In this document: positions 50,401 to 58,585 of the stretch, one piece after another
Position numbering within the stretch: the first letter of the stretch is position 1
Layout: each line of letters opens with the position of its first letter
DNA from: Planctomycetota bacterium
GTDB taxonomy: Bacteria > Planctomycetota > UBA1135 > UBA2386
Direction: 5' to 3'
Assembly: GCA_965223545.1 (NCBI GenBank)
Contig: OZ245006.1
Coordinates: forward strand, 2,272,001 to 2,336,000
Length of the DNA: 64,000 nt
Made by a program: the position numbers and the translations under genes
Notes under the pieces: generated by a model
What the model was told of the DNA's origin: nothing
The model's database searches: none
What the model saw: the letters and a program-made list of their open reading frames with translations, nothing else

Positions 50401-50583
50401 TCCTGAACAGGGATCCAATAGATGTGGTGCGGGGCCGCGCACACGCGTGCGCGCCGCTGCCGGCCCACACACGCAAAGCGCAGCACCGGCGGCTCCCGAA
50501 ATGCGGATCAATCACATTCGCGACGCTGGACGATGAGTCCGGTGCGGGCCGGAGATCGCGATCTCCAAGGCGAGGGAGATCCC

Positions 50584-51114
50584 ATGGCAGGTGGCGGCGA
50601 CGAGAACGGGACGGATCAGCTGGCGCTTGCGTATGACGAGCTGCGCCGGTTGGCAGGGCGCTATCTGCGCCACGGCGGTGCCGACCAGACGCTGCAACCC
50701 ACGGCCTTGGTGCACGAGGCCTGGCTGCGACTCGCCGGCAACCGCGCTCTCGACGAGATCACCAGCAGCCACGTCGCCGCGCGCGCGGCGCGTGCCATGC
50801 GCCACGTGTTGGTCGACCGCGCGCGCCGGCGTGGATCGGCGAAGCGTGGAGGTGATTGGCAGCGCGTCGCGCTGGAGGCCGCGCCGCCACGGTCGGAAGC
50901 CACCGCACTGCTCGACGCGGTCGTCCTGAACCAGGCCATCGACGCGCTGGCGGCATCCCACGCCGAGCTCGCCGAGCTGGCCGAGCTGCGGCTGCTCGCC
51001 GGCCGGTCCCTGGCCGACGCTGCCGCGATCCTCGACTGGCCCCTTTCGACCGCCAAGAAGCGGTGGCAGTTCACCATCGCCTGGTTGGCGCGCGCGGTGA
51101 GGTCGGACGATTGA
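50584..51114 (+). CDS. ECF-type sigma factor (TLQPTALVHEA group)
   Basis: SD GAGGGAG; YDELRRLA, TLQPTALVHEAWLRL, AMRHVLVDRAR, KRGG. Confidence 0.9.
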   Translation: MAGGGDENGTDQLALAYDELRRLAGRYLRHGGADQTLQPTALVHEAWLRLAGNRALDEITSSHVAARAARAMRHVLVDRARRRGSAKRGGDWQRVALEAAPPRSEATALLDAVVLNQAIDALAASHAELAELAELRLLAGRSLADAAAILDWPLSTAKKRWQFTIAWLARAVRSDD

Positions 51115-54100
51115 ACGAGGCGCGCGTCGTGGAGCTGTTCGCGGCGGCGCAGGGGCTGAGAGACGCCGAACGGCGTCGATTTTTGCAGCAGGCCTGCTCC
51201 GACACGCGCCTGCGCACCGAGGTCGAAGAGCTGATCGCCGCCTACGAGGACCTCCCCGCCGAGCTGCAGACCGACCGATCGCCCGCGGACCGGCTCTCCG
51301 GCCAGGGAGACCGCCTCGATCCACCCAGTACCGTCGGCCCTTACACCTTGCTACAACGCATCGGCGCCGGCGGCATGGGCGTCGTGTTCCGCGCGCGGCA
51401 GGAGCTTCCCAGTCGCACCGTCGCGCTCAAGGTCGTCCGCCCCACTGGAGCCGGCGGCGATTGGCTGCGCCGCTTCCGCACCGAGGTCGAGACTCTCGGT
51501 CGGCTACGCCACCCGGGCATCGCTCAGGTCCACGACGCGGGGATCGTCGGGGGCAGCCACGGCGACCAGCCTTGGTTCGCCATGCAGCTGGTCGAGGGCG
51601 TGCCGATCACCGAGTACGCCGAGCGCCATGGCCTCGACTGTCGTGCGCGGTGCGCCATGCTGGCGCGGGTCTGCGACGCCGTGCAGCACGCGCACGAGAG
51701 GGGTGTCGTCCACCGAGACCTGAAGCCCGCCAACATCCTCGTCGACGCTGACCCTGGCGAGCCACCGCAGCCGGTCGTTCTAGACTTCGGCATCGCGCGC
51801 CTGCTCGACCAAAGCGATGCGACCGCGCAGGATCTGACCGAGCAGCCGATCGGCACGCCGCCCTACATGAGCCCGGAGCAGCTCGGCGGTGACTGCGCCG
51901 TGGACGCTCGCTCCGATCTCTACTCGCTGGGGGTCCTGTTCTTCGAGCTGATCGCCGGTTGGCGGCCGCACGAGATGGACGGCCAGGGCTATCACGCGTT
52001 CGCGCGGCGCGTGGCACAGTGCGAGCCGCCTCGACTCGGCACGCACGACGCGCGGCTGCGCGGCGACCTGGAAGCCATTGCGGGGATGGCGCTGGCCAAA
52101 GACCGAGACCGCCGCTACGCCTCGGCACGGGCGATGGCGGATGACCTGCGGCGCTGGCTCCGGCACCTGCCGGTGAAGGCGCGCCGGCCGAGCGTTTGGT
52201 ATCGCGCCCGCCGCTTCGCTCGACGCAACCGCGCGCTGGTGGGTGGCGCCGCCGCGACTCTGGTCGCGATCACCGTCGGCGTCGTGGCGACTGCCTTGTT
52301 TGCGCTGCGCGCCGTGCAAAACGAGCGCGCCGCCGCGCAACGCGAGTACGCGGTGCGCATGTCGCAAGCGCTGGCGATGATGAGCCGCGATCCGGTGGGT
52401 GCCGAAGAGCTGCTGGACGGCGCCGCTCCGGGCCTCCGCGGCTTCGAGTGGCACTACGCGCGGGCGCGCGTCGACAGCAAGCGGCACGCCTTGGTGGACG
52501 CGTTCTCCACTGCCGAGGCCGCCTGGCACGAGCAGTGCGCGGTGGCGTTTCCCGCCGACGGGCCGCTGTACGCGCGCACCGACTCGGAAGGGCTCCGGCT
52601 GATCGACGTGCGCACCGGCACCGTGCGCAAGATCCTGCGGGCAGGAGGCGCCCTCGAACATCCCGCCCTCAGCGAAGACGGCACCCGCGTGGCCGCGCGC
52701 CTGCGGAACGGATCCCAACGCAGCCTGCTGGTCTGGGACGCCGCCTCCGGCCGAGAGCTGTTGGCGCTGGGCCTGCCCGCCGAACACCTCGGTCCGTTCT
52801 CGCTGCGCGGCGACGGGCGCATCGCCGCGTTCGCGCGCTGGCGCGACGGCGGCGCGATCGTCGACGTCGACCGCGGCACCGTCATCGAGCTGCCACCGGC
52901 GCCCGAGGTCGTGCACGGACCGCTGCCGGCACCCAGCTTCGTCGCCGACGGACATCGAACGCGCATCGGCGCGCGCGTCTACGACACCCACTCAGGGCAG
53001 TTGGTGGCGGAAGACGCCACCGACGCGGCGGTGTGGCAGATGACGCGCACGCGGAAGGGGACACTGGCGACCGCACAATGGCGGCGACGGACGATCGAGC
53101 TCGCCGAGGCGTCGGCCGCGACCCCGAAGCGTTCTTTGACAGGACTGCGCAGCCACGCGCACGAGATGGTGTTCTCGGCCGATGGACGCCGACTGGCCGC
53201 TGCCGACTACGCCGGAGCCGTGCTGGTGTGGGACGTCGAACTCGGAGCGGTGCTGCGCGGGTTTCCCGACGCCGCCAAGTGGTTGGCGTTCGACGAGAGC
53301 GGGACCCGCTTGGCCGCATGCACCAGCACCGGCCCGGTGGAGTGGGACCTGACCGACCGCGGCGCGCGGGTGCTCGCGGCACACCGAGCCTACGGCCTCC
53401 TGGTGGCGTACTCGCCCGACGGCGCGCTCCTGGCCTCGATGGACACCGACCGGCGCGTCGTGCTGTGGGATCCGCTGACCGGCACGCCGCTGGCCACCAT
53501 CCAGTCGGCCAACCGCGGCCAAGCGCTCCGCTTCTCGGAGGACGGCCGGCGGCTGATCCTGGCGGGACCTCCCGACCAGGGCTGGGACGTCGCCACTGGC
53601 GCCCCGGCGCCGGTCGACGCACCCTTCGCCGCCCCCGGTCGACCCACGGCCGCGGCGCGCGAGGTCGGTGCGTGGGATGCGGCCAGCGACGACGGCGCTC
53701 TCCACGCGGTTGCGAGCAGCACCCACCTCTTCGTGCGCAACGCCGACGGCGATCCCCTGATCACGCTGGAGCTCCCGCCGGCGAACGGCGGCGGCCCCGG
53801 CCGCGCCGCCAGGCTGCGCGCCGCATTGGCGGAGCTCCACATCCTCTACGCCCCGAGCCTCGCCATCGACCCCCACCACCGCTGGGTCGCCGCCGGCCGC
53901 AAGGACGGGTCGCTGAACGTCGTCGATGCGAGCAGCGGCGAGGTGCGCACCGTGCACCGGCACTTCGGACCGGTCTACGGCGTCGCGTTCAGTCCCTGTG
54001 GGCGCCGGATCGCCACCGCAGGCAACGACGGCGCGGTTCGCCTGTGGGACACCGAGTCGCTCGAGCACGTCGCGGAGCTGCGCGGCCACGACACCTACGT

Positions 54101-54398
54101 GCGCGCCGTCGCATTTCGCCCCGACGGCCAACAGCTGGCGACCACGTCCGGCGACCTGACGGTGCGGCTGTGGGACGCCGCGCCGGATGGAGTCGTGCGC
54201 GCGGCGGCGCGCGCGCGGGCCGCCGCGCGAGAGCGGGCGCGGGTCGCGATCCGCACGGAGCTGCGGGGAGGTCGGGCACCGGCGGAATTGGCGCGGAGGG
54301 TGCGCGCGGATCCCGAGCTCTCGGAGGAGCAGCGGGTCGTGGCCCTGCAGGCGTTGCTGCTCGAGAGCCAAGCCGCGCGGTGGACCCGGGCGCGCTGA
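51111..54398 (+). CDS. Ser/Thr protein kinase with C-terminal WD40 repeats
   Basis: TTGA overlap with sigma stop; GAGGMGVVF, HRDLKPAN, DFG, GTPPYMSPE; GH...VAFRPDG...VRLWD repeats. Confidence 0.93.
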   Translation: MNEARVVELFAAAQGLRDAERRRFLQQACSDTRLRTEVEELIAAYEDLPAELQTDRSPADRLSGQGDRLDPPSTVGPYTLLQRIGAGGMGVVFRARQELPSRTVALKVVRPTGAGGDWLRRFRTEVETLGRLRHPGIAQVHDAGIVGGSHGDQPWFAMQLVEGVPITEYAERHGLDCRARCAMLARVCDAVQHAHERGVVHRDLKPANILVDADPGEPPQPVVLDFGIARLLDQSDATAQDLTEQPIGTPPYMSPEQLGGDCAVDARSDLYSLGVLFFELIAGWRPHEMDGQGYHAFARRVAQCEPPRLGTHDARLRGDLEAIAGMALAKDRDRRYASARAMADDLRRWLRHLPVKARRPSVWYRARRFARRNRALVGGAAATLVAITVGVVATALFALRAVQNERAAAQREYAVRMSQALAMMSRDPVGAEELLDGAAPGLRGFEWHYARARVDSKRHALVDAFSTAEAAWHEQCAVAFPADGPLYARTDSEGLRLIDVRTGTVRKILRAGGALEHPALSEDGTRVAARLRNGSQRSLLVWDAASGRELLALGLPAEHLGPFSLRGDGRIAAFARWRDGGAIVDVDRGTVIELPPAPEVVHGPLPAPSFVADGHRTRIGARVYDTHSGQLVAEDATDAAVWQMTRTRKGTLATAQWRRRTIELAEASAATPKRSLTGLRSHAHEMVFSADGRRLAAADYAGAVLVWDVELGAVLRGFPDAAKWLAFDESGTRLAACTSTGPVEWDLTDRGARVLAAHRAYGLLVAYSPDGALLASMDTDRRVVLWDPLTGTPLATIQSANRGQALRFSEDGRRLILAGPPDQGWDVATGAPAPVDAPFAAPGRPTAAAREVGAWDAASDDGALHAVASSTHLFVRNADGDPLITLELPPANGGGPGRAARLRAALAELHILYAPSLAIDPHHRWVAAGRKDGSLNVVDASSGEVRTVHRHFGPVYGVAFSPCGRRIATAGNDGAVRLWDTESLEHVAELRGHDTYVRAVAFRPDGQQLATTSGDLTVRLWDAAPDGVVRAAARARAAARERARVAIRTELRGGRAPAELARRVRADPELSEEQRVVALQALLLESQAARWTRAR

Positions 54399-54453
54399 GG
54401 CTTCCTATCGTGGCGGTGGCGCTGCACAGTGGCTAACGTCCACGTTCACGTTC

Positions 54454-54528
54454 TCCGGGGTAGATCAGAGGTGAGATCGCTCGGCTCGGACCGAGAGGGC
54501 GCTGGTTCGAATCCAGCCCCCGGACCCA
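54454..54528 (+). tRNA. tRNA-like RNA with non-canonical 6-nt anticodon loop (identity undetermined)
   Basis: TCCGGGG/CCCCGGA acceptor, TA, GATC/GATC D-stem, CTCGG/CCGAG stem with loop CTCGGA, AGGGC, GCTGG-TTCGAAT-CCAGC T-arm, C-CCA end. Confidence 0.8.
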
Positions 54529-54550
54529 TTTCGACCCAACGACGGTGACC

Positions 54551-56866
54551 ATGCCCGGCGACGACAGGACGACCCCATCGGGCGCCAATCCTGGCTACGC
54601 CGCATACCAGCTCACCAAGGCGCTGGACACTCGCGACACCCACGCCGATCCGGAGACCCGCCGTCGCGCGGCAGCGAGGGTGACTCGGTGGGAGACGGTG
54701 TTGCGCGACCTTCTCACCGGCGCTGTCGACCACGGAAGCCGCGCCCCGCTCGAGAACGTCCCCGAGTGGGTCACCCTCGAGGTGATGACCGGCGGCTTCG
54801 CCACCGGCAATCTGGTCGCCGGGGGGCCGCTGCAACCGCACGAGCTCGCCCTCCTCGAGGAGCTCTCGAAGCCACCGAAAGGCCGCGAACGCGCCGCGTT
54901 GAACGCGCACTTCGTGAGCGAGCCCGGGCTCGCCGAGTTGGGCGAGCGTTTGCGCGCGGGAACGTACGACGTCACGGTCCCTGAGGAAGGCGCCCTGTTG
55001 ACCGTCGCGTGGCTGGTGCGGCACGGTCACGTCACGCAGGCCCACGCGCTCTTGGATCAGCTGCTGCCCTTATTCGACCGCGTGCGATTCTACCCCGTGC
55101 CGCGTTCGGGGCCTCCGCCCCGCGGACCGCACGTCCACCTGCAGACCGTCGGCGACACCGTCGCCGACCTCGATCAGATCCAGCCCAATCGCAAGGTGCT
55201 GGCGCAGAAGGAGGCGGTCGAGATCTGGGCTCCGTTCCATGACCGCGTGGTCTCGATGTTCTGCGAGACGGTCGTCGACGACTGGCCGTGCCGGCACTAT
55301 CCGCCGGACTGGAAGGAGCGTGCGCGCGCCCTGATCGACGAGTACTCGACGCTGCGCGCGCAGCACGTGCTCTGCAGCAAGCCGGATCGAAGAGGAGGAC
55401 ACCAGCTGCAGCTCCGCACGCTCCTGCAGCAATGCGCAGAAGACCCCGCCGCCCTCGACGGGCGCGCCGCGGGCATGGTCCGCCGGATCCTGCGCTGTTT
55501 CTCGCGCAAGCGGGGAGCTCCGGGGTCCGCCGCGTGCGCGCAGGCGCGCGCGCGGCAAGCCGAGGATGTCCGCGCCCCTGTCTTTGCCGCCATCGCCCAG
55601 CTCGTCGTCGCACGCCTCAACCGGCATCCCGGCGACGCAGCCCTGGCGGACGTGTAGGTGTTGACCGCGGCGGTGAGCGAGGTCGAAGCGCGGAGCGACG
55701 TCCCTGCGGGCACTCCGATCCCGCCGTGCATCGGCCGCAAGGCGGAACGCTGCTTGTCGGACACGCCGGTCGCCTTGATCCGAAAGGGCCTGATCACGTC
55801 GGGAGACACGCTGGCCCGGATCCTGCCACAGCTCAGTGCGGCAGTCAGCGGTGCCGCCATCGACGATCCAGAGCTGCGACCGCTGTACGCGGCGGTCTAC
55901 CGCGCCTTCCGCAGACGCCGATCACTCCTGCTGCTGAATCTGCAAGAGCAAGTCCAACTCGAAGAGCTGCCCTGGATCGCCGTGACCGCGCAGTTTCGCA
56001 CCCGCAGCCGCACCGGACGCGATCTGGCGCGGGAGACGCTCGGTGAGGCCGCGTTGCTGACCCTGACGTCGTTCCCCCACGCGCTCGTGCCCAACAAGCT
56101 CTTGCAGGAGTTTCGCGCGCTGAGCCGTGCCGCCGGCATCGACCTGGCTCTGGTCGACGAGCTTGCGGCCGACATCTTCGCGGGCACTTTCACCGGCAAG
56201 TTCACCGCTGCTCTCGAACGGGCCGCCCAACTGCTCGATGGATCGATCTACGCCACCTACTACGAGATCGACTACCCAGCGGCCGTGGCCGCCGTCGCCA
56301 GAGACCGTTCCCCCCGGCGCAGCCTCTTTCGCCGCCCGACCGACCGGCCCCCCAACGATGCCCTCGCCCGCCTGTGCGCAGCGCGCGCCGGGGTCGAACT
56401 CGACCGTTGGGCGCCGGCGATCAACGGCATGGTCATCGAGCAGCAGCAGATCCTCACCACGCAGAATCTCGCGGTTCTCGTCTCGGGGCTCGACCTGCAA
56501 GAACCGCTACGGCCGCACCTCGACGGCATGGCCAAGGGCTGCTTCACCTGGATCTGCAAGCGCCTCCAGGTCAAGCCGACCGATTGGCACGATCGGCTGA
56601 TCGCGACCAAGAACGCCGCCTACGCATGGCGTCAGATGCTGTTCTATCTCGCGCTGCAACCATCGGGCGCGACGGATGAGTTCCTGCACTGGGCAGACGG
56701 GGTCCTCGGCCAACAGCGACCGGAGTTCGGCGCGCGCTTCCGCCCCGCGTTGGATGGGCTGGTGCTCGTCGCCGGTGGCCAGCTCGACGACTCTCGGCGC
56801 AACCGAGTGCCGGGATTCCTGGGATGGTGCGACGGCACGCATTGGCTGTTGGAAGAGTCGGGCTAG
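54551..56866 (+). pseudogene. Large uncharacterised protein (771 codons) interrupted by one in-frame TAG at 55655-55657
   Basis: ORFs 54545..55657 and 55658..56866 abut in the same frame; no SD before the second; sequence reads continuously (DAALADV*VLTAAVSE). Confidence 0.7.
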
Positions 56867-56993
56867 GCTCGGGTTTTTTGGCGGAAAGGTGTCCAAACCG
56901 GGCACCGCGACGCGTCGCCTGGTGTCGGCCGATTCGACCGGCGAAACCAGAACCACTGACGAAACAGACCCGAAGCCTCGGAAAGGACACGCC

Positions 56994-57329
56994 GTGCCCA
57001 ACTACCTCTGCATCCAGCGAAGCCAACCCGGCGGACCATGCGACCAGCCGTCTCCCGCCCAGATGGAGGAGCTGTACGCTGCGTTCCTCGCCTGGAAGGA
57101 CAAGTTCCAAAAGAACATCGTCGACATGGGTGGCAAGCTCGGCGGCGGAAGCGTGGTCACTGCGGACCGCGCGACGGACGGCCCGTTCGTGGAGGCCAAA
57201 GAGATCGTCGGCGGATTCATGATCGTCGCCGCGGACAGCCTGGAGGAGGCGATCGCAGTCGCTCGTGAGAGCCCCGGAGTCGCCATGCCGGGGTCGTCGG
57301 TAGAGGTGCGGGAGATCCACACTCCTTGA
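56994..57329 (+). CDS. YciI/DGPF-domain protein
   Basis: SD AAAGGA, GTG; TDGPFVEAKEIVGGF...EEAIAVA...VEVR. Confidence 0.9.
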   Translation: MPNYLCIQRSQPGGPCDQPSPAQMEELYAAFLAWKDKFQKNIVDMGGKLGGGSVVTADRATDGPFVEAKEIVGGFMIVAADSLEEAIAVARESPGVAMPGSSVEVREIHTP

Positions 57330-58585
57330 CCGCGCCCTCGCTTCCCGAGCACTTCTTCCGGCACGAGTACGGGAAGCTCGTCGCCACGTTGGTGCGCCGC
57401 GCCGGCGCGCAGCACTTCGAGCTGATCGAGGACGCCACGCAGTCGGCCTTGCTGATGGCCGTCGACTCCTGGCCGCGGACGGGGTTGCCGGAGAACCCAT
57501 CGGCTTGGCTCTTTCGAGTTGCGCACAACGATCTCATCGGACAGCTGCGCAAACGCGCGCGCGAGCGCCGCCTTCTCGAGCAGAGCCCGCGGAGGGACGT
57601 CCAGTCCGACGACCCATCCGAGCTTGGCGATGAGGAAATGCAGGACGACCTGCTGCGGATGTTGTTCGCCTGCTGCGACGACACGATCGCGGTCGAATCC
57701 CAGCTCGTGCTGGCCCTCAAGACCCTCTGCGGTTTCAACATCCGAGAGATCGCGCTGCGCCTGTTCATTACCGAGGCGAACGCCTACAAGCGCTTCGATC
57801 GGGCCCGGCGCCGCCTGCGCGAGCGTCCCCCTCCCGGGGGCAAGCTGCAAGACGAGCGTTGCGCATCGCGACTCCCCGCGGTGCACAAGGTCCTCTACGT
57901 CCTGTTCACCGAAGGACACCTCTCCGTCCGGTTGGGAGAGTCCTTGCGGACCGAGCTCTGCGCCGACGCGATCCGGCTGGCGGAGATCCTGGCAGAGCAC
58001 CCGGCCGGCCAAGTTCCCGAGACGTTCGCGCTGTTGGCTCTGATGCACTTCCACGCGGCGCGCATGACCGCTCGCCAAGACGCATCCGGCGGACTGCTCC
58101 TCCTCGAAGAGCAAGACCGCGAGCTCTGGGACCGCGCGCGGATGCACACTGGGCTCGAGTGGCTGGCCAAGTCGGCACAGGGCAGCGCGTTCTCCCGATA
58201 CCACGCCGAGGCCGGCATTGCGGCGGAGCACTGCCTCGCCCCTTCGTTCGACGAGACGCGCTGGGACAGGGTCGTGGAGTGCTACCGCTTGCTGGAGAAG
58301 ACCGCCCCGTCCCCGATCCACAGGCTCAACTGCGCCGTGGCGGTCGCCGAGTGGAAGGGGCCGGCCGCGGGTCTCGCGACGCTCGAGGGGTTCGTGCCTC
58401 CGACTTGGTTGGCCAGTTCATACCTCTGGGCCGCGGTGATGGCGGACTTGCATCGACGGTGCGGAGACGCGGAGAGGGCGCGCGACTATCGCGAGGCAGC
58501 TCTGGACGCTGCCCCCACGCAGGCGGTGAGGCAACTGTTGGAACGACGACTCGCGTACGTCGCCGCCGACGGCGAGCGAGGCTGA
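57326..58585 (+). CDS. ECF sigma factor with long C-terminal TPR-like extension (ECF42-like)
   Basis: EDATQSAL, WP..G.PENP.AWL, DDLLRMLFACC, LYVLFTEG, LEEQDRELWD, YHAEAGIAAEH; coupled to DGPF gene. Confidence 0.88.
   Translation: MTAPSLPEHFFRHEYGKLVATLVRRAGAQHFELIEDATQSALLMAVDSWPRTGLPENPSAWLFRVAHNDLIGQLRKRARERRLLEQSPRRDVQSDDPSELGDEEMQDDLLRMLFACCDDTIAVESQLVLALKTLCGFNIREIALRLFITEANAYKRFDRARRRLRERPPPGGKLQDERCASRLPAVHKVLYVLFTEGHLSVRLGESLRTELCADAIRLAEILAEHPAGQVPETFALLALMHFHAARMTARQDASGGLLLLEEQDRELWDRARMHTGLEWLAKSAQGSAFSRYHAEAGIAAEHCLAPSFDETRWDRVVECYRLLEKTAPSPIHRLNCAVAVAEWKGPAAGLATLEGFVPPTWLASSYLWAAVMADLHRRCGDAERARDYREAALDAAPTQAVRQLLERRLAYVAADGERG

Follow-up and report, generated by a model that had tools for sequence, protein, structure and literature searches.

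Within the 64,000-nucleotide (nt) stretch of DNA analysed here (the window; contig OZ245006.1 of the Planctomycetota bacterium assembly GCA_965223545.1, positions 2,272,001 to 2,336,000), a tRNA-like RNA with a full cloverleaf lies at 54454..54528 on the + strand, just ahead of a gene for a protein of a family of about 780 amino acids (aa), and is a member of a conserved RNA family upstream of that gene. On comparative evidence, this RNA is a tRNA mimic under selection for shape, without decoding or acceptor identity, and it appears tied to the downstream gene and co-inherited with its protein, a coupling that we regard as well supported. Its recurrence directly ahead of the same large, unclassified gene in many unrelated bacteria points to an undescribed RNA-protein module, of which RNA and protein each lack a curated family of their own. 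Our preferred reading, held tentatively and with a probability of roughly 0.45, is that the RNA is a cis-acting leader that would be cut by tRNA-processing nucleases and would gate translation of an RNA-acting protein. What we observe in its favor is that the L-shape is kept, anticodon and acceptor identity are lost, RNA and protein are co-inherited, and the RNA abuts the start codon. Whichever mechanism holds, the RNA family and the protein family have travelled together across phyla, and automatic tools that label the RNA as tRNA-Trp, -Lys, -Arg, -Leu and others hide it and distort tRNA gene counts.

A tRNA-shaped RNA coupled to one protein gene

Direct reading of positions 54454-54528 gives Watson-Crick pairs throughout the four stems (7/7, 4/4, 5/5 and 5/5), together with U8/A14, G15/C48, G18G19, G26/A44, the T-loop UUCGAAU, the acceptor pair U1-A72, discriminator C73 and an encoded CCA. 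An earlier, sequence-only reading of the window had described this 75-nt cloverleaf with its perfect stems, tertiary signatures and CCA, and each detail was found again. ARAGORN labels the element tRNA-???, and the Rfam model RF00005 scores it at 57.6 bits (E 1.3e-10), above the gathering score of 29, in answer to the check with an Infernal-type tRNA model that the earlier reading had proposed. The Rfam scan reported no family other than tRNA, with one lower-scoring overlap from the same clan dropped without a name, and did not match yjdF. The folding energy is unremarkable (z -1.18, with 22 of 200 shuffles as stable), so that support for the RNA comes from the covariance model and from conservation. 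At the anticodon position (54485..54490, + strand) stands a loop of 6 nt, CUCGGA, of which C32-U33 are fixed in the family and the other positions variable; the same loop is found in L030, the closest relative, and in L060 (the family's loci carry L numbers). The acceptor identity of tRNA-Pro is C1-G72 and A73. The element, with U1-A72, C73 and its 6-nt loop, is unfit for tRNA-Pro(CGG), as had been noticed from the sequence, and none of 87 unique family elements has A73; an ordinary tRNA-Pro(CGG) is present in the host genome at C1:8065485. A canonical decoding tRNA was likewise rejected: cloverleaf, core and elbow bases are present, but the loop has 6 nt and the family carries 22 anticodons.

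Re-assembled contigs from Logan agree with the window sequence. Those of runs X1 and X3 cover the stretch in full and that of run X4 covers 54300-55720 at a depth of 453, each with 0 differences; the three runs represent two samples of one study, and the source sample is possibly among them. We therefore reject an assembly error behind the 6-nt loop or behind an in-frame TAG in the gene (see below), since the re-assembled contigs show both and neither is an error of this assembly. The assembly deletion that the sequence-only reading had held open for the loop is further countered by the recurrence of 6-nt loops in 16 of the 87 unique elements.

ARAGORN calls a tRNA just upstream of the gene in 24 of the first 28 loci, under at least 10 different labels or anticodons. 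With a parser free of loop constraints we obtained 61 unique near-perfect cloverleaves; L033, an ordinary tRNA-Gln, was removed and the remaining 60 elements were aligned to give the covariance model R1. This model scores the window element at 89.6 bits and any host tRNA scored at no more than 69.5, the element being within the training set. For 25 loci outside the training (the unpublished L116 excluded), R1 found the element in 17, and the eight misses include two internal gene fragments. Overall, the element is present in 110 of the 122 loci that have the gene's 5' end, a redundant set, and it lies just upstream of the gene in 77 of 85 non-redundant homologs (<80% protein identity) from at least six phyla, so that the conserved upstream element with a variable anticodon loop for which the sequence-only reading had proposed looking among homologs is indeed there. 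In a sample of 61 related genomes, just two have the protein, and these same two alone exceed an R1 score of 80 bits (89.6 and 87.3, the next best being 74.7); the RNA without the gene is thus absent in that sample. Distances between RNA bodies follow protein distances (rho 0.71) and anticodon distances give a rho of 0.10, as computed for 104 intact loci in 3649 non-independent pairs.

Seven of the eight genes without an element form one clade (support 0.89), which has no tRNA-like sequence within 400 nt upstream, even with relaxed thresholds, and which retains the conserved residues of the protein (mean loss 0.054, compared with 0.042-0.109 in other clades). A search for protein residues lost together with the RNA returned only R604, which is also variable in an RNA-bearing clade. 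The eighth gene, in L033, lies directly 3' of five real tRNAs; this array (L033:13-516; Thr, Met, Asn, Ile and Gln) stands in the element's place. The RNA is thus dispensable in one clade and replaceable by a real tRNA at one locus. The element pattern was absent from the viral contigs searched, and blastn of plasmids and phages gave none; R1 finds diverged copies on five plasmid loci. Two loci, L035:3980-4140 and L088:275-353, show deletions with junctions at or just past the element's anticodon loop.

Constrained body and free anticodon loop

Two-sided changes occur at 14 of the 21 pairs in the aligned elements; the figure of 99.9% pairing in the 60-element alignment is by construction of the set. 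The core-triple bases U8, A9, U12, C13, A14, G22, A23 and G46 are invariant in 60/60, and so are C32 and U33, in elements chosen without any loop constraint. Seven-nt loops have a purine at 37 in 56 of 63 cases and A38 in 52 of 63. Across the 87 unique elements, the loop has 7 nt in 68, 6 nt in 16 and 5 nt in 3, the anticodons number 22 with CUA and UCA included, and CCA is encoded in 49. Discriminator N73 is C in 44, U in 32 and G in 11, and the first pair is U-A in 61 and C-G in 24, so that no single synthetase identity is kept. Since most members have a loop of 7 nt in which the anticodon varies freely, the 6-nt loop is not the central feature that the sequence-only reading took it for; its suggestion of selection for shape rather than decoding is borne out by the covarying stems and free anticodon of the family. 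Three tertiary pairs, 15.48 (G-C 69 and A-U 10, of 87), 54.58 (U.A 75 and G.G 11, of 87) and 18.55 (G.U 63 and A.G 9, of 79), switch in concert, in few independent events, and the G54.G58 form, combined with a GGC T-loop, is the mark of an actinobacterial clade. This mostly actinobacterial subtype, with a T-loop starting in GGC (G54.G58, often A18.G55), was seen in L024, L025, L028, L111-L115, L118, L119 and L121; it has no CCA, and its AUG often lies 1-3 nt past G73.

At more than 90% protein identity, divergence is 0.2% in the RNA body and 12% per site in the anticodon. For single-copy orthologs at 90-99.9% protein identity, the anticodon changes at 0.12 per site, compared with 0.00-0.22 at fourfold sites, and the loop is identical in 14 of 20 such pairs. 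This argues that the body is under strong purifying selection and that the anticodon is roughly neutral in single copies. We considered and rejected base-pairing between the loop and the 5' strand of the acceptor stem (4.82 pairs, compared with 4.88 in shuffles), as well as a match of the anticodon to codons of the first 20 codons or of the whole gene, which gave no excess over shuffles.

Five loci (L011, L054, L058, L113 and L135) carry two to three tandem elements, and in four gap-free tandem pairs the loops differ at 4-5 of 5 positions. In the Massilia duplication, differences fall at 4/5 positions of the loop, 11/275 of the flanks and 1/66 of the body (binomial P about 1e-5). Sequence comparison suggests that this loop divergence in tandem copies is either diversification or a mutation hotspot. 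The tandem elements at L113:5640-5981 (Embleya), L135:3970-4123 (4 nt apart), L054:3747-3943 and L058:2068-2343 each have a different loop. At L011:5290-6040 (Massilia rubra), a recent duplication of about 350 bp takes in promoter region, element and gene start, and the EF-G paralog upstream also carries a duplicated domain-IV fragment.

The protein gene and its surroundings

In the window, the frame from 54545 or 54551 to 56866 is interrupted by a TAG at 55655..55657 (+ strand), giving 368-370 aa plus 402 aa where intact relatives have about 780 aa; the single 770-aa open reading frame of the sequence-only reading is therefore split. The 5' half (54545..55657, + strand), 370 codons from a GTG up to the TAG, is 66% identical to family protein P0002. 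The 3' half (55658..56866, + strand) runs for 402 codons, beginning at a GTG that immediately follows the TAG, and holds the conserved core, all-helical in the homologous-domain model. By the Logan contigs and family alignment, the TAG falls at a surface position that varies within the family (Ser in 58 and Gly in 23 of 120 homologs, besides other residues) and is probably a recent nonsense mutation. Translation with X in place of the stop gives a protein that retains 90 of the 91 residues invariant in the family and whose halves are each 66% identical to the closest homolog, which indicates that the break is recent; because a GTG stands directly behind the stop, two polypeptides are possible. 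The window copy is probably a recent pseudogene or a split gene. Read-through of the TAG by pyrrolysine was rejected with no PylS match in the 91%-complete host genome (8.1 Mb, 70% GC), and a programmed stop is unlikely, as a single other internal TAG was seen (L062), at a different position; seven other flagged stops in homologs are normal termini. A relaxed ARAGORN run placed a tRNA-Sec in the host genome at C1:7952888-7952986.

The spacer from RNA to start codon (54529..54550, + strand) has no obvious Shine-Dalgarno sequence, and the terminator scan of the window found no terminator between RNA and gene. The gap of 22 nt to the ATG at 54551 noted from the sequence is correct as a distance; GTG at 54545 matches the start of L030, so that the spacer may be 16 nt instead. 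By eye, a possible, weak -10-like hexamer lies at 54434..54439 (+ strand), 14 nt 5' of the RNA; the promoter scan of the window reported none before the RNA. Clearer hexamers of this kind, 9-12 nt 5' of the RNA, were seen by eye in Achromobacter loci, the L082 clade and streptomycete plasmid loci. The unit closes with a weak terminator-like hairpin and U-run at 56858..56882 (+ strand), in a scan that gave 3 sites compared with 1.2 +/- 1.5 in shuffles.

Our homolog search scored 8000 candidates and gave 1167 clusters; the best 120 homologs are all full-length (743-803 aa) and named 'hypothetical protein' where named at all, and the family has 1499 representatives at 50% identity. The named loci belong to Acidobacteriota, Chloroflexota, Pseudomonadota, Planctomycetota, Verrucomicrobiota and Actinomycetota, and intact copies are carried by named culturable hosts such as Massilia rubra CCM 8692 (L011), Nocardiopsis potens DSM 45234 (L025) and Brevifollis gellanilyticus NBRC 108608 (L018). 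The gene is patchy, with 2/61 among relatives and 12/351, 7/151, 4/151, 2/351, 1/301 and 6/44 in six further genome samples, counts that take in the centre genomes and, among the 7, one unpublished genome. It is broken in 9 of 115 loci (16 flags minus the seven normal termini), and in its own phylum 6 of 12 gene matches are broken, some possibly by assembly. Seven actinobacterial plasmid records carry the gene, and searches of viral contigs and phages found none. In P0272 (1569 aa), a Ser/Thr kinase-TPR protein is fused to a full-length family member, possibly by chance read-through or as a chimera.

The protein matched nothing in Pfam, NCBIfam, PADLOC, PHROGs or PDB sequences, and ESM Atlas returned unnamed clusters or no match. 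Fold prediction, which the sequence-only reading had recommended, gave confident and mostly helical models: the AlphaFold2 model of the protein has a predicted local distance difference test (pLDDT) of 84.5 and a predicted TM-score (pTM) of 0.71, and that of the C-terminal domain is compact and all-helical (pLDDT 88.9, pTM 0.89). Structure searches of both models (Foldseek on PDB and BFVD; VIA-align) gave no match, which does not prove a new fold, and residues 53-390 were covered as part of the whole-protein model. The best VIA-align scores were Z 7.3 over a 52-residue hairpin and Z 5.4 over 89 residues. The earlier judgement that the protein could not be assigned to any family thus stands after sequence and fold searches. 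Arg, Glu, Asp, Asn, Gln, Gly, Pro and aromatic residues make up most of its invariant positions, among them R56, E90, R106, E137, R448, R449, N507, E529, D533, K679 and R686; no His is conserved at 93% or above, which makes a HEPN-type RNase unlikely.

Around the module in the window lie a Ser/Thr kinase-WD40 gene upstream and a YCII/ECF sigma pair downstream. The upstream region 50476-54398 holds a putative ECF-type sigma gene, identified by eye, with the kinase-WD40 gene, and 56997-58585 encodes the YCII protein and a DUF6596 ECF sigma. No conserved third gene was found near the module beyond lineage synteny. We surveyed neighbours in 80 loci (35 of 115 were dropped as near-duplicates, plasmid records or the window itself), and the following counts have no background rate. 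Genes related to tRNA or RNA repair occur in 7/80 loci, among them Hen1 (L054), an EF-G paralog with AAA_33-HD (L011), TrmK (L093), a weak PTP-SAK match (L040) and tRNA arrays (L033 and L100). At L089:1484-6301, rtcB and rtcA lie directly 5' of element and gene and share their strand, in what looks like a single RNA-repair operon. At L100:4-10243 the module has a type I restriction enzyme gene on one side and on the other an array of 19 tRNAs, behind which lies an HNH nuclease gene. About 5/80 loci have defence-type neighbours, namely DISARM drmA/drmB, a type I restriction enzyme, a DNA methylase, a DitA-like gene and an MrfA helicase; at L106:127-3900, an element-less gene copy lies 3' of DISARM drmA and drmB and of a gene identified by eye as PLD-like.

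A proposed cis-acting leader, rival readings and known systems

Under the cis-acting reading, the module would be an accessory unit of two parts, in which a promoter is followed by the tRNA-shaped leader and then by the mostly helical protein of about 780 aa without a known family. The leader would be co-transcribed with the gene and processed by host nucleases, RNase P at its 5' end and RNase Z or RNase E at its 3' end, and would act in cis in the manner of a bacterial t-element or a translational gate: once folded, the cloverleaf may hide the start region, and 3' cleavage or protein binding would decide whether the mRNA, leaderless in actinobacteria, is translated. Expression could thereby depend on the state of tRNA metabolism. 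The most likely role of the protein is to bind tRNA or other RNA, or to act on it, during translational stress, and it may, in what is the weakest step, repress its own mRNA via the mimic. The position of the element is consistent with such a role. Of 107 loci with a called start, 9 have N73 and the start 1-3 nt apart and 94 have them 8-33 nt apart, and in five actinobacterial loci a single base separates G73 from the AUG, which would leave a ribosome without room on the folded RNA. Passages of published work provide precedents: t-elements define the ends of mRNAs by way of RNase Z or P (PMC1920247), tRNAs placed in cis increase translation 2-6.3-fold (PMC9142559), and 264 mRNAs of S. coelicolor, which also has a homolog of RNase Z, are leaderless (PMC4681348).

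Several observations weigh against this reading. Shine-Dalgarno strength shows no significant difference between loci with the element and those without it (median -3.3 vs -4.75 kcal/mol for 96 and 12 loci, p 0.09), the start region at actinobacterial loci is predicted to be only modestly less accessible (0.43-0.50 vs 0.46-0.61), and four of the 107 loci have spacers of 54-120 nt. The upstream tandem copies in five loci are unable to gate a start codon, and a pure processing signal does not need the invariant C32-U33. That the protein acts on RNA is suggested by its neighbours and its conserved Arg, Asn, Gln and Trp, with no basis in the fold, and 73 of the 80 loci have no RNA-related neighbour.

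The rival readings of the RNA as ligand or decoy, as tripwire and as charged tRNA are not fully exclusive of each other. In the first, the main rival, which we consider possible but on balance doubtful, the excised cloverleaf would act in trans, binding the protein as a stable subunit, inhibitor or decoy in the manner of Y RNA and Ro60 or a type III antitoxin. The tandem copies in five loci would supply an excess of RNA, the RNA body is inherited together with the protein, the otherwise fixed N-domain residues N110, E138 and R171 have also changed in the actinobacterial clade whose elbow is altered (one event), and patchy distribution and frequent breakage fit a costly accessory gene. Against it stand the seven-member clade that keeps its conserved residues without an element within 400 nt upstream, which argues against an obligatory antitoxin or subunit unless a host tRNA substitutes, the missing terminator between RNA and gene in the window, the failure to match any known toxin or nuclease family or fold, and the lack of His among the residues conserved at 93% or above. 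The sequence-only reading had offered ligand, decoy or processing signal; ligand and decoy are unproven and weakened by the element-less clade, and a processing signal fits the anatomy best. A relic, meaning a decayed tRNA or integration scar hitchhiking with the gene, is largely refuted and seems the least credible explanation. Patchy distribution and one half-element with its junction at the loop (L088) would agree with it; against this, the window element is no more than 68% identical to any of the 48 other tRNAs called in the host, and its longest word in common with the remaining host genome is 14 nt, so that a decayed duplicate or att scar, put forward earlier as a possible refutation, failed as one. 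The nearly invariant body with its compensatory changes, and an integrase beside just 1/80 loci (L108), also speak against a relic; in the integration-scar test, the window module was flanked by the kinase-WD40 gene and the YCII/ECF sigma pair.

It is improbable, in our estimate, that the RNA is a tripwire whose loop baits anticodon nucleases (of a toxin, a phage or a competitor's tRNase), so that cleavage alters the fate of the mRNA or frees the protein; equally improbable is the corollary that loops diversify so as to sample different nuclease specificities. The canonical loop frame (C32, U33, purine 37 and A38) is retained despite 22 anticodons, tandem copies diverge in their loops with few changes to the body, and genes for RNA repair, DISARM drmA/drmB, a type I restriction enzyme and the HNH gene by the 19-tRNA array are found among the neighbours. 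Yet anticodons in single copies change at about the synonymous rate and most pairs (14 of 20) share the same loop, 19 of 87 loops have only 5-6 nt, the clustered changes could reflect a hairpin mutation hotspot, and the protein has no PADLOC match. A broader tRNA-surveillance variant, in which a new-fold protein is gated or held by dedicated tRNA decoys and switched on by an attack on the cell's tRNAs, is rather unlikely, and we are just as hesitant about its second part, that the decoy loops diversify, fastest in tandem copies, to sample anticodon-nuclease specificities. Very little speaks for a charged non-canonical tRNA, either mistranslating or serving as amino-acid donor to the downstream protein as a tRNA-dependent transferase. 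T-stem and acceptor are normal and CCA is often encoded, and a donor tRNA would not need a fixed anticodon, as is the case for non-proteinogenic donor tRNAs; however, no single synthetase identity is kept across the 87 elements, the anticodons include CUA and UCA and have no link to codon use in the gene, and no synthetase, transferase or LanB/PEARL-like family or fold was matched.

Judged from sequence, the module departs from each known family at the defining tests that could be applied. The nearest parallels to a cis-acting leader are the t-elements of plant mitochondria, likewise a non-decoding tRNA-like fold with its 3' end at the 5' end of an mRNA in the account excerpted from PMC1920247; here, the fold is bacterial, a complete conserved cloverleaf with a C32-U33 frame and one protein family across phyla, and cleavage is only inferred. 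The yjdF riboswitch is also a tRNA-derived leader with cis action on the translation of one gene family, according to a passage of PMC9142559. The present element differs in having no Rfam yjdF match, an intact acceptor stem, often a CCA, a different gene and a start codon that is often too near for a Shine-Dalgarno expression platform. The E. coli thrS gene is autoregulated through a tRNA-mimic operator. Such a leader, imitating the tRNA ligand of the protein, is one possible mechanism here, with the difference that the module has a whole cloverleaf with a free anticodon and a protein that is not a synthetase.

Type III toxin-antitoxin systems (ToxIN, TenpIN and CptIN) have RNA units, sometimes in tandem, directly upstream of a protein gene, as does the module. 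The RNA here is a cloverleaf and not a pseudoknot, there is no intervening terminator and the RNA has been lost in one clade; we rejected a type III system for the window, which has a single element, no match to a ToxN-, TenpN- or CptN-type family and a protein of about 780 aa. Closer in appearance are the YrlA Y RNAs of Ro60 (Rsr), likewise tRNA-mimicking RNAs beside a large helical protein with an occasional rtcB link, and the D. radiodurans Yrn1 was also modelled with a 6-nt 'anticodon loop', in the portion of PMC4201824 consulted. Membership in that source requires a Ro60 (TROVE) gene within 4 kb of the RNA (PMC4201824). No TROVE/Ro60 domain (PF05731) was found in the 91%-complete host genome or in 238 flanking open reading frames, the partner protein has no TROVE match, and the element is a cloverleaf only, without an extra Ro-binding module. 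The host rtcB lies at C1:3.63 Mb, 1.3 Mb from the element, and rtcB/rtcA are adjacent in 1/80 relatives' loci (L089), so the Ro60/Y RNA and RtcB systems invoked by the sequence-only reading are analogies and not memberships. As described in part of PMC3399842, the B. cereus tRNA-Other is also a tRNA-like gene outside translation, transcribed within a longer RNA; it has a Trp anticodon and flanks an island, whereas the present RNA has a free anticodon and a constant partner gene. The open literature that we searched holds no description of the module, with subscription papers and supplements outside that scope and a mention in print possible. If its role is purely cis, the module would fall among the tRNA-mimic leaders, as a bacterial tRNA-punctuation control of one protein gene and a natural counterpart of engineered cis-tRNA leaders; if the RNA acts in trans or as bait, it would be a new system of RNA and protein engaged in tRNA-directed conflict, and the fold of its protein has no match.

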